A DNA stretch of 33,489 nucleotides. Origin: Chloroflexota bacterium (lineage in GTDB: Bacteria; Chloroflexota; Dehalococcoidia; UBA2247; RBG-13-53-26). Position numbers and translations under genes: made by a program. The DNA lies in contig QMOF01000001.1 in assembly GCA_003650185.1 (NCBI GenBank), positions 1-33,489 on the forward strand, in the 5' to 3' direction. This document shows, one piece after another, positions 1,159 through 1,682 of this stretch; position 1 is the stretch's first letter; the number at the start of each line of letters is the position of its first letter. A model generated the notes under the pieces. It was not told the origin of the DNA, ran no database searches, and worked only from the letters and a program-made list of their open reading frames with translations.

Positions 1159-1362
1159 CTACCCCTCGCTAAGCCTGCGGTTTATGCCACCGATCTCCTC
1201 GACCCACCGCTGTCTTTCCTGGTGCTCCATCTCCAGGATTTCCCGGCGCGGCCAGTGGAAATAGTAGGCGATGTAGGCTACCTCCTCGTACAGGCGGTCG
1301 AGGGGGTAGCCCTTTATGCCCCCCCCAGGCGGCCCATATCTACCTCGAAATTGTGCCCGCAC
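1159..1362 (-). CDS. -1 frame extension of the tail assembly chaperone (small conserved-looking domain GYPLDRLYEEVAYIAYYFHW...), probably made only as a frameshift fusion
   Basis: The 67-codon frame overlaps the 3' end of ORF 1314-1682 by 49 nt. Its only upstream start is a GTG at 1362 with no Shine-Dalgarno sequence. The protein-like sequence begins right after the G8 run. Confidence 0.6.
   Translation of the reverse strand: MRAQFRGRYGPPGGGIKGYPLDRLYEEVAYIAYYFHWPRREILEMEHQERQRWVEEIGGINRRLSEG
1276..1326 (-). other. putative -1 programmed ribosomal frameshift cassette (slippery heptamer + spacer + hairpin)
   Basis: The minus-strand RNA reads CTG GGG GGG GCA TAA in the zero frame (plus-strand C8 at 1319-1326), giving heptamer G GGG GGG at 1320-1326. 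After an 8-nt spacer comes the hairpin GGCTACC-C-CCTCG [ACCGCCTGTA] CGAGG-A-GGTAGCC at 1276-1311 (12 bp). Confidence 0.55.
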
Positions 1363-1682
1363 TCAGGACAGGTAGTGGGAATCATGCTTGTCCCGTTCTC
1401 ATTGATCCGGCGATAGAACTCCTGAAGGTAGGCCAGGTCGGCCGAGAACAGGTTCTCGATCACCCCGGTATTGACATCCTTCAGGTTGCCAAGCTTGGTG
1501 ATCACTCTGGAGAGCAGGACGACCACCAGGTAAGCCTGGTTGGCCTTCACCCGCATGTCTTTCAGCGGGAATATCTCGTCGGCCGCCGTGGCCAGGCGCA
1601 TGACGCCGTGCTTGTGGAGGTTGCCCTCCTTGTCCACGTAGCCCCGTGGCAAGGTGAACTCGAATTCGGTCTGCAGAGTCAT
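1314..1682 (-). CDS. phage-type tail assembly chaperone-like protein (zero-frame product)
   Basis: 122 aa, with GAGGTGA 5 nt upstream of the ATG. It lies directly after the sheath and tube genes, where P2 E/E' and lambda G/GT chaperones sit. The sequence MTLQTEFEFTLPRGYVDKEGNLHKHGVMRLATAADEI resembles proteins annotated 'phage tail assembly protein' in eCIS loci (from memory). Confidence 0.7.
   Translation of the reverse strand: MTLQTEFEFTLPRGYVDKEGNLHKHGVMRLATAADEIFPLKDMRVKANQAYLVVVLLSRVITKLGNLKDVNTGVIENLFSADLAYLQEFYRRINENGTSMIPTTCPECGHNFEVDMGRLGGA

Follow-up and report, generated by a model that had tools for sequence, protein, structure and literature searches.

A predicted programmed -1 frameshift links two small reading frames into one tail-assembly-chaperone-like gene in an extracellular contractile injection system operon

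Two small open reading frames (ORFs), here called ORF1 and ORF2, overlap in different frames between the two tube genes in an extracellular contractile injection system (eCIS) operon, and the locus raises the question of whether they are two genes or one. The DNA comes from a Chloroflexota bacterium (assembly GCA_003650185.1, contig QMOF01000001.1, positions 1-33,489); this whole stretch of 33,489 nucleotides (nt) is referred to as the window, and coordinates are those of the window unless another locus is named. The complete cassette lies at 1159-1682 on the minus strand and would yield a short product of 122 amino acids (aa) and, by a -1 shift, a fusion of 174 aa. An earlier note on this DNA had read it as a frameshift cassette of the type found in phage tail assembly chaperones (TACs). 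Our analysis leads to the same answer: with a probability of about 0.8, ORF1 and ORF2 form one recoded tail assembly chaperone gene of the eCIS, expressed by programmed -1 ribosomal frameshifting with a 3' hairpin. What is observed directly is the overlap in two frames, the slip site, the hairpin, the degree to which these are conserved, and the homologies.

ORF1 (1314-1682, minus strand) starts with ATG and encodes the zero-frame short product of 122 aa, which carries a zinc-ribbon-like CxxC/H motif at its C-terminus. Its last codons are CTG (1328-1326), GGG (1325-1323), GGG (1322-1320), GCA (1319-1317) and TAA (1316-1314). On the minus strand the junction reads ...GAT ATG GGC CGC CTG GGG GGG GCA TAA, followed directly by AGG GCT ACC CCC TCG ACC GCC TGT ACG AGG AGG TAG CC... 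ORF2 runs from 1362 to 1159 on the same strand, with 67 codons from a GTG start, and is open in the -1 frame across a run of eight G residues (G8, 1319-1326). Within this run, the slippery heptamer G GGG GGG (1320-1326, minus strand) stands in the X XXY YYZ phase. A spacer of 7-8 nt (1313-1319, minus strand), which includes the ORF1 stop codon TAA (1314-1316), separates the slip site from a hairpin (1275-1312, minus strand), the predicted frameshift stimulator, located inside the codons for G-Y-P-L...E-E-V-A-Y. The hairpin has an outer stem of 7-8 base pairs (bp), a C.A mismatch, an inner stem of 5 bp and a loop of 10 nt; its arms, GGCUACC/C/CCUCG and CGAGG/A/GGUAGCC, occupy 1311-1276, and a G.U pair extends it to 1312-1275. 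Its minimum free energy (MFE) was -23.7 kcal/mol (z = -4.5), and 0 of 200 dinucleotide shuffles folded as well. The -1 frame extension (1159-1320, minus strand) comprises 53 codons and a stop (GIKGYPLDR...RRLSEG) and contains a DUF6760 domain, a homologue of P2 E', which would be translated only when the frame has shifted. The predicted -1 fusion is 174 aa long with the junction ...GRLGG|GIKGYPLDR, and its junction peptide is GRLGGGIKGYPLDR. The sequence and its translation bore out what the earlier note had described here, namely the CTG GGG GGG GCA TAA end of the 122-aa ORF with a second ORF in the -1 frame across G8, the in-phase heptamer at 1320-1326, an interrupted hairpin at 1276-1311 about 8 nt after it (7-8 nt in our measurement), an ORF2 with only a GTG start and no Shine-Dalgarno (SD) sequence in the window, and the two products with the claimed junction.

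One genome per GTDB species was scanned for homologues, which gave at least 585 loci; the best 80 were kept and, together with the window, made a set of 81. ORF2 lay in the -1 frame of ORF1 in 78 of these 81 loci, and the 78 spanned Chloroflexota, Myxococcota, Acidobacteriota, Planctomycetota, Nitrospirota, Bacillota, methanogens and haloarchaea. The length of the G run ranged from 4 to 8 across loci while the frame relation stayed constant. A less biased sample was obtained by a tblastn search of finished plasmids (46 records), in which 25 of 25 hits among those listed were split into two frames. The records came from Streptomyces, Nostoc, Rhodococcus, Paenibacillus, Paraburkholderia, Ralstonia, Rhizobium, Deinococcus, Haloferax and Halogeometricum; the cassette layout is found in cultured isolates as well, on plasmids or megaplasmids with finished sequences. 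At E <= 1e-3 the family comprised 2018 protein clusters (clusters at 50% identity).

This recurrence, in 78 of 81 loci and in finished isolate plasmids, rules out homopolymer sequencing error as a general explanation. A wider form of that explanation holds that the pair is an artefact or a decayed gene, in which a single ORF of ~175 aa was broken by a homopolymer error or a mutation, possibly at a phase-variable G tract. In its favor, in-frame versions of 174-177 aa exist that differ by one G, and G8 tracts are prone to error and mutation; against it, the same -1 relation was found in loci from independent assemblies and in all of the listed isolate plasmid matches, with runs of 4 to 8, and in-frame read-through was observed in only ~8 of the top 150 representative clusters. 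We regard it as scarcely credible. The natural in-frame ORF1-ORF2 proteins (P0001, P0002, P0007, P0103 and others) have the junction GG[VI]xGYPL, which confirms the reading frame of the fusion. They are one G off the split type: the run is G4 in L081 (1174-1698), G8 followed by TAG... in L082 and L083 (3001-3534 in both), and G6 in L001 (372-1155); a further example is L015. Of the three in-frame loci, two are from 'MFD' metagenome-assembled genomes, which are presumably long-read based, and the third bears a deletion within the stem's C run. These in-frame variants could reflect homopolymer assembly errors, fixed fusions, or DNA-level phase switching at the G tract. L081 has, in addition, a tandem pair of sheath-tube sets.

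The -1 frame opens late: across the 78 loci, its opening precedes the ORF1 end by a median of 37 nt, so that the shift must fall within a short stretch, and this stretch holds a G run in nearly every locus. In 45 of the 78 loci, there was no ATG, GTG or TTG in the ORF2 frame between the upstream stop and the conserved Tyr, and in 66 of the 78 there was no ATG at all upstream of the conserved motif. In those 45 loci, an ORF2 product with the conserved N-terminus is therefore obtainable only by a shift from ORF1. In the earlier note, the conserved-looking -1-frame sequence starts right after the slip site; across the loci, conservation begins exactly at the G run.

The same note had supposed that eCIS annotation treats the pair as two unrelated genes, and RefSeq indeed does so, labeling ORF1 'phage tail assembly protein', 'zinc-ribbon' or 'hypothetical', and ORF2 'DUF6760 family protein'. 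The starts assigned by the Prokaryotic Genome Annotation Pipeline (PGAP) in RefSeq are unusual: the Nostoc DUF6760 gene (L086, 2866-3036) starts with ATA, and the Rhodococcus gene (L089, 2881-3024) starts with a TTG that removes the conserved GYPLG residues. Such starts result from forcing an independent start onto a frameshift extension.

Two genuinely separate genes would require translation of ORF2 to reinitiate, coupled to termination at the ORF1 stop, on a GTG, TTG or near-cognate AUH codon next to that stop. This idea draws on the upstream GTG of ORF2 in the window, on the 33 of 78 loci with some ATG, GTG or TTG before the conserved motif, on haloarchaeal ORF2s that start with ATG, on the first -1 codon after the run, which is usually Ile or Val and near-cognate for initiation, and on the Afp-type eCIS, which have a free-standing, ATGA-coupled afp6 in a comparable place. 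It is contradicted by the 45 loci without a possible start codon and by conservation in the -1 frame that sets in exactly at the G run and thus upstream of every start that PGAP was able to call. Moreover, a stable hairpin over the would-be start region would hinder initiation, an in-phase slip motif with fixed spacing would be needless, and the in-frame fusions keep the same junction residues. We therefore consider two separate genes very improbable.

An in-phase slip motif (G GGG Gnn, C CCG GGG or G GGA AAY) was found in 76 of the 78 -1 loci and in the isolates that were examined. The most frequent forms were G GGG GGG (33 loci) and G GGG GAA (26 loci), followed by G GGG GGA (8 loci) and C CCG GGG (5 loci). 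In haloarchaea, the classical heptamer G GGA AAC or G GGA AAT took the place of the G run, as observed in Halobium salinum (L053, about 6400-6480) and in Haloferax and Halogeometricum (L088 and L093). The slippery heptamer claimed in the earlier note is thus present in the window and its G GGG core is conserved, but the strict X XXY YYZ form did not hold generally, being found in only ~60% of loci, with GGGGGAA in about a third. The universal core of the slip site is G GGG, which amounts to a slip in the P site. At ~1000 actinophage TAC frameshift sites the reported motif is GGGGGAA ('fivetwo'), with tRNA-Glu re-pairing on GGA through a G.U pair (PMC10885494).

The G runs could also act at the level of transcription, with RNA polymerase adding one G in the run; this would give the same fusion protein as ribosomal frameshifting. 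Runs of G7-G8 occur in the window and in 33 of the 78 loci, where one added G yields the identical protein, and the run is one G longer or shorter in related assemblies, so that the tract is prone to slippage at least at the DNA or sequencing level. However, the run is only G5 in 33 of the 78 loci and G4 in three, and the haloarchaea have G GGA AAY without a long run. Known polymerase slippage typically needs runs of 8-9 or more A/T, for which G4-G5 tracts are too short. In addition, a stem 5-8 nt downstream, constraint at synonymous sites and a strict codon phase are ribosomal hallmarks. As the main route, transcriptional slippage is therefore unlikely, although it keeps some probability.

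The stem begins 5 nt after the heptamer in 50 loci and 8 nt after it in 24 loci. In an ungapped alignment of 78 sequences, standard pairs filled 90.6% of pair cells, compared with 33-57% when the 3' arm was slid by 1-3 columns. One pair covaried between C:G and G:C (29/26), and it joins the third base of a Leu codon to the first base of a Glu/Gln codon; in two loci, TAT...ATA replaced TAC...GTA, that is, U:A replaced C:G. Codon choice within the hairpin was strongly skewed. The Val codon of the 3' arm was GTA in 70 of 73 loci, although GTA makes up 6.8% of the Val codons in the rest of these genes, the Pro codon was CCC in 67 of 78 (28% background), and the Gly codon was GGC in 43 of 43 (51% background); the binomial p values for these codon choices ignore phylogeny, and the pattern spans phyla. 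The 44-nt segment after the slip site had a median MFE of -19.8 kcal/mol, compared with -10.0 kcal/mol for other coding segments of the same loci, and it was among the best 5% of folds in 72% of loci.

Streptomyces (GUACGC.../...GCGUAC) and Rhizobium (AAGGCC/GGCCUU) have, at this position, stems built from other sequence and encoding other amino acids, and S. clavuligerus likewise has a stem of its own sequence there. The Halobium slip site is found 56 nt upstream of G-Y-P, with a new hairpin of -29.9 kcal/mol after it in non-conserved sequence, which indicates that the structure follows the slip site and not the protein motif. The downstream structure of Haloferax and Halogeometricum was weak (-11 to -14 kcal/mol), and ORF2 has an ATG of its own in both. 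RNAalifold alone recovered 9 of 13 pairs with a weak covariation term (-0.35); stronger grounds for the stem are the counts of pairs, the test of codon usage and the divergent lineages. No Rfam covariance model matched the region 1100-1750 on either strand up to E = 1. As suggested in the earlier note, the two-frame overlap, the in-phase slip motif and the downstream stem were followed together through the homologous loci, and they co-occurred while the nucleotide sequence drifted.

The identity of the -1 extension was then considered. ORF2 is a member of PF20546 (DUF6760), with an E-value of 5.4e-14 and 52.5 bits against a gathering threshold of 27 (profile positions 8-53 of 89). Its score against PF06528 (Phage_P2_GpE) was 15.3 bits (E 0.015), which is under the gathering threshold of 23 bits, and it matched phrog_10636 and phrog_1756 weakly. 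When P2 gpE+E' was built from the GenBank P2 record at the annotated -1 site, PF06528 (residues 104-139), phrog_1756 and phrog_10636 all mapped to the E' segment that is made only by frameshifting. Comparison of a profile of 76 conceptual eCIS fusions with P2 gpE+E' by hhalign gave a probability of 88%, an E-value of 3e-6 and 45% identity over 40 columns; the alignment starts just after the junction in both proteins, and both have the motif FHWP..E...M...E...W. By these sequence comparisons ORF2 is a remote homologue of P2 E', though not a member of PF06528 by Pfam's own criterion. A tblastn search of 50,697 phage records gave no match to the eCIS cassette family.

The P2 gpE/gpE+E' pair resembles the eCIS pair in several respects: both belong to a contractile-tail system, both stand right after the sheath and tube genes, and in both a -1 extension, homologous between the two systems, follows a common N-terminus. 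The gene order in P2 is FI, FII, E/E', T, U, D; in the eCIS it is sheath, tube, cassette and tube, and related eCIS loci continue with a long unannotated protein, a LysM tube initiator and a VgrG/gpD-like spike. The two systems differ in the slip site, which is T TTT TTG in P2 and a G-rich G GGG Gnn with a conserved hairpin in the eCIS, in the second tube gene that stands between the pair and the presumed tape measure, and in the host element, a cellular eCIS. ORF1 also differs from P2 gpE, in that it has no match to PF10109 or phrog_103 and has a zinc-ribbon-like C-terminus.

With lambda gpG/gpGT and the TACs of long-tailed phages, the eCIS pair would have in common the two-product logic and the -1 slippage, and it has a similar place, beside a tube gene and a candidate tape measure gene; no sequence similarity of the eCIS pair to lambda G/GT was found. 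The TAC frameshift is reportedly conserved among long-tailed phages, as described by Xu, Hendrix and Duda in 2004. Lambda is not known to need a strong downstream structure; the eCIS cassette, by contrast, has a conserved stem.

The family of ORF1 pointed in the same direction. ORF1 matched phrog_508 'tail assembly chaperone' (E 5e-5), and its homologues are named 'phage tail assembly protein' by NCBI; neither ORF1 nor ORF2 matched an NCBIfam model. An AlphaFold model of the fusion had a mean predicted local distance difference test score (pLDDT) of 83.9. In a Foldseek search of BFVD, this model matched 'baseplate hub assembly' proteins of the T4 gp26-like kind (E-values from 1.7e-7 to 6e-4, probability 1.0), a 'tape measure chaperone' (E 7e-3) and Mu FS-gp41 (E 0.087, probability 0.84). 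T4 gp26-type proteins and Mu gp41/FS-gp41 were thus the best structural matches, and the tube and sheath of the eCIS likewise resemble T4 gp19 and gp18. Vladimirov et al. (2022) reportedly treat gp26-like proteins as T4-type TACs whose two forms arise by a mechanism other than frameshifting. The eCIS gene differs from these T4-like TACs in its predicted P2-like -1 shift and its E'-like extension. The tail-chaperone analogy of the earlier note, drawn there from gene position and two-product logic, thus gained support from homology (phrog_508, the gp26-like and Mu FS-gp41 folds, and the P2 E' alignment).

Within the ORF1 family, C105 and C108 are invariant, H110 is near-invariant (CPxCxH) and H23 is invariant (residues ~100-116 correspond to 1314-1400, minus strand), and the model places strands 100-104 and 111-115 at the CPxCxH motif. 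This motif is possibly a zinc site, which P2 gpE lacks. Some homologues (P0005, P0019, P0022, P0025 and P0121-P0127) were tandem duplications or triplications of the ORF1 domain, 210-417 aa long with 2-3 matched stretches. One tandem homologue is named 'phage FluMu protein Com' by the Joint Genome Institute (JGI), presumably because of the zinc ribbon.

Afp6/Pvc6 (DUF5908) of class I (Afp-type) eCIS resembles ORF2 in that its small gene comes immediately behind a tube gene, afp5, and in a short 'QRWVE(R/E)I' motif. Afp6 of Serratia entomophila (L096, 10611-10778) has 55 aa and its own ATG, in an ATGA overlap with afp5, with no E-like ORF and no frameshift layout. That Afp6 and ORF2 are the same domain was rejected (hhalign probability 4%). 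The Afp6 segment DDQRWVERIKQ resembles ERQRWVEEI of ORF2, and Afp6 may be very remotely related to the C-terminal helix of the E'-like domain. With the fusion as query, no Serratia plasmid appeared among the organisms listed, though the tube gene is present in 32 Serratia records. Lineage II eCIS are reported to lack afp6, with the exception of subtype IIb (PMC6899500); the Afp-type eCIS on Serratia plasmids, which have afp6 in place of the cassette, fit this distribution.

Under programmed frameshifting, most ribosomes would stop at the ORF1 TAA (1316-1314) and release the 122-aa chaperone. A minority would pause over the G run because the 13-bp hairpin, 7-8 nt downstream, would be positioned where the mRNA enters the ribosome. 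In the P site, and in the window in the A site as well, tRNA-Gly would then re-pair one base back on G GGG GGG, and translation of 53 more codons in the -1 frame would give the 174-aa protein, whose additional C-terminal domain (DUF6760) would correspond to P2 E' and lambda T. If lambda G/GT and P2 E/E+E' are taken as the model, a tape-measure-like protein encoded downstream would be coated by the short form, and the rare long form would tether the chaperone-tape measure complex to the tube or the tube initiator, which would allow tube and sheath to polymerize to a set length. Neither form of the chaperone would be expected to stay in the particle.

A candidate for the coated protein was present. 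Related loci have, after the genes for chaperone and tube and before that for the LysM tube initiator, a gene for a long (520 to >830 aa), apparently disordered protein rich in Ala, Arg, Gly, Glu and Pro (1-509, minus strand, in the window; 7336-9525 in L002; 3506-5080 in L086 from Nostoc; 3029-5518+ in L087), and Nostoc and Streptomyces have the equivalent gene. In the window, only the start of this low-complexity ORF is seen (ATG 509-507), and the ORF continues beyond the window edge. The 729-aa protein of L002, a locus 80% identical to the window, ends in a basic helical motif, ...LERLAREVYAIIRRRLAVERERIG. By gene position, the long disordered protein is a candidate tape measure. Recent papers describe eCIS length control as poorly understood and Streptomyces clusters as being without a typical tape measure.

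Several observations weigh against the reading of the pair as a single recoded chaperone gene. ORF1 reached no Pfam TAC family, and Foldseek against PDB gave nothing significant, the best TAC-like match being YqbN (3klu) with a probability of 0.18. The long disordered proteins matched no Pfam or PHROG family, tape measures included. On the side of the slip site, two loci had no detectable G GGG motif in the motif scan, and in the third of loci with GGGGGAA, re-pairing in the A site requires a G.U pair at the middle position. Part of the conservation of the stem is owed to the protein, because the stem sits in coding sequence. The haloarchaeal ORF2s have an ATG that could serve alone. About 5% of homologues are in-frame fusions, so that either the two-product logic is not universal or those records carry homopolymer errors. 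Finally, that both predicted products are made, and the ratio and binding partners that they would have, are inferred.

The cassette stands in an eCIS operon on the minus strand, whose gene families by Pfam are ATPase, eCIS_core/DUF4157, Pvc16_N, sheath, tube, cassette and second tube. The AAA+ ATPase gene (6792-9002) encodes an Afp15-like protein with a winged-helix N-domain (PF22977 and PF00004), an eCIS marker. It is followed by the eCIS_core/DUF4157 protein gene (5904-6776), by the gene for a Pvc16/Afp16-type cap protein (DUF4255; 3928-4743; PF14065, E 2e-37), which is also an eCIS marker, and by the sheath gene (2170-3723; PF04984 and PF17482). The tube gene of the T4 gp19 family (1704-2147; PF06841, E 1e-38) lies directly upstream of the cassette and the second tube gene (516-965; PF06841, E 4.5e-44) directly downstream. 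In L002, the operon goes on with the 729-aa disordered protein, a CIS_tube+LysM initiator, VgrG and PAAR. The locus has the composition of an Afp/PVC-like eCIS (sheath, tube, cap, ATPase, LysM initiator, VgrG and PAAR, with no capsid genes), with LysM/CIS_tube, VgrG and PAAR read from L002 because the window stops before those genes.

Upstream of the cap gene, the proteins encoded at 4788-5858 and 5904-6776 (both minus strand) have a common N-terminal motif, ...PAN...LQ(R/Q)..GNAYVQRLL. The former had no Pfam match and the latter has the eCIS_core/DUF4157 domain; they may be cargo or effectors that share a signal for loading. Just upstream of the eCIS operon, at 9460-10509 (minus strand), lies a gene for a transcriptional activator of the SARP/BTAD family (PF03704, Trans_reg_C, TPR), which plausibly regulates the operon. 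A 79-aa ORF (8977-9216) that overlaps the start of the ATPase gene matched no family.

The TAC frameshift of tailed phages, as in P2 E/E+E', is already classical. What appears to be new here is its conserved presence in eCIS, DUF6760 as an E'-like extension, and the conserved stem. A literature search, which was not exhaustive and took in publications on dbeCIS, on Streptomyces systems including that of S. davawensis, and on AlgoCIS (a 2026 preprint), found no paper on the frameshift cassette, on DUF6760 as an E'-like extension or on the conserved stem in eCIS, and DUF6760 was named in no paper of the literature searched. Taking all lines together, we hold the following joint picture with moderate confidence. 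A deeply conserved -1 frameshift would operate in cellular, non-viral operons of Bacteria and Archaea (>2000 clusters at 50% identity, at least 585 species genomes), with a stimulator that is under synonymous-site selection and is rebuilt when the slip site moves. DUF6760 would be the eCIS equivalent of lambda T and P2 E'. Lineage II eCIS, those of Streptomyces included, would set their length with a chaperone and a tape measure, the long disordered protein serving as the ruler, and the G tract may allow a DNA-level switch between the two-product and the fused-only state.

These findings propose a role for DUF6760 and for the unnamed small gene before it, and they correct a systematic error in RefSeq, where two genes are called, sometimes with ATA or truncated starts. 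They add a large and easily testable set of predicted cellular -1 frameshift sites, archaeal ones included. For the engineering of eCIS as delivery devices, both forms, and hence an intact slip site and stem, would need to be kept during refactoring or codon optimization. A probable assembly chaperone is now named for the eCIS lineage that includes the Streptomyces, Nostoc, Ralstonia, methanogen and haloarchaeal systems, and its identification points to the long unannotated downstream protein as the candidate partner that would determine length.

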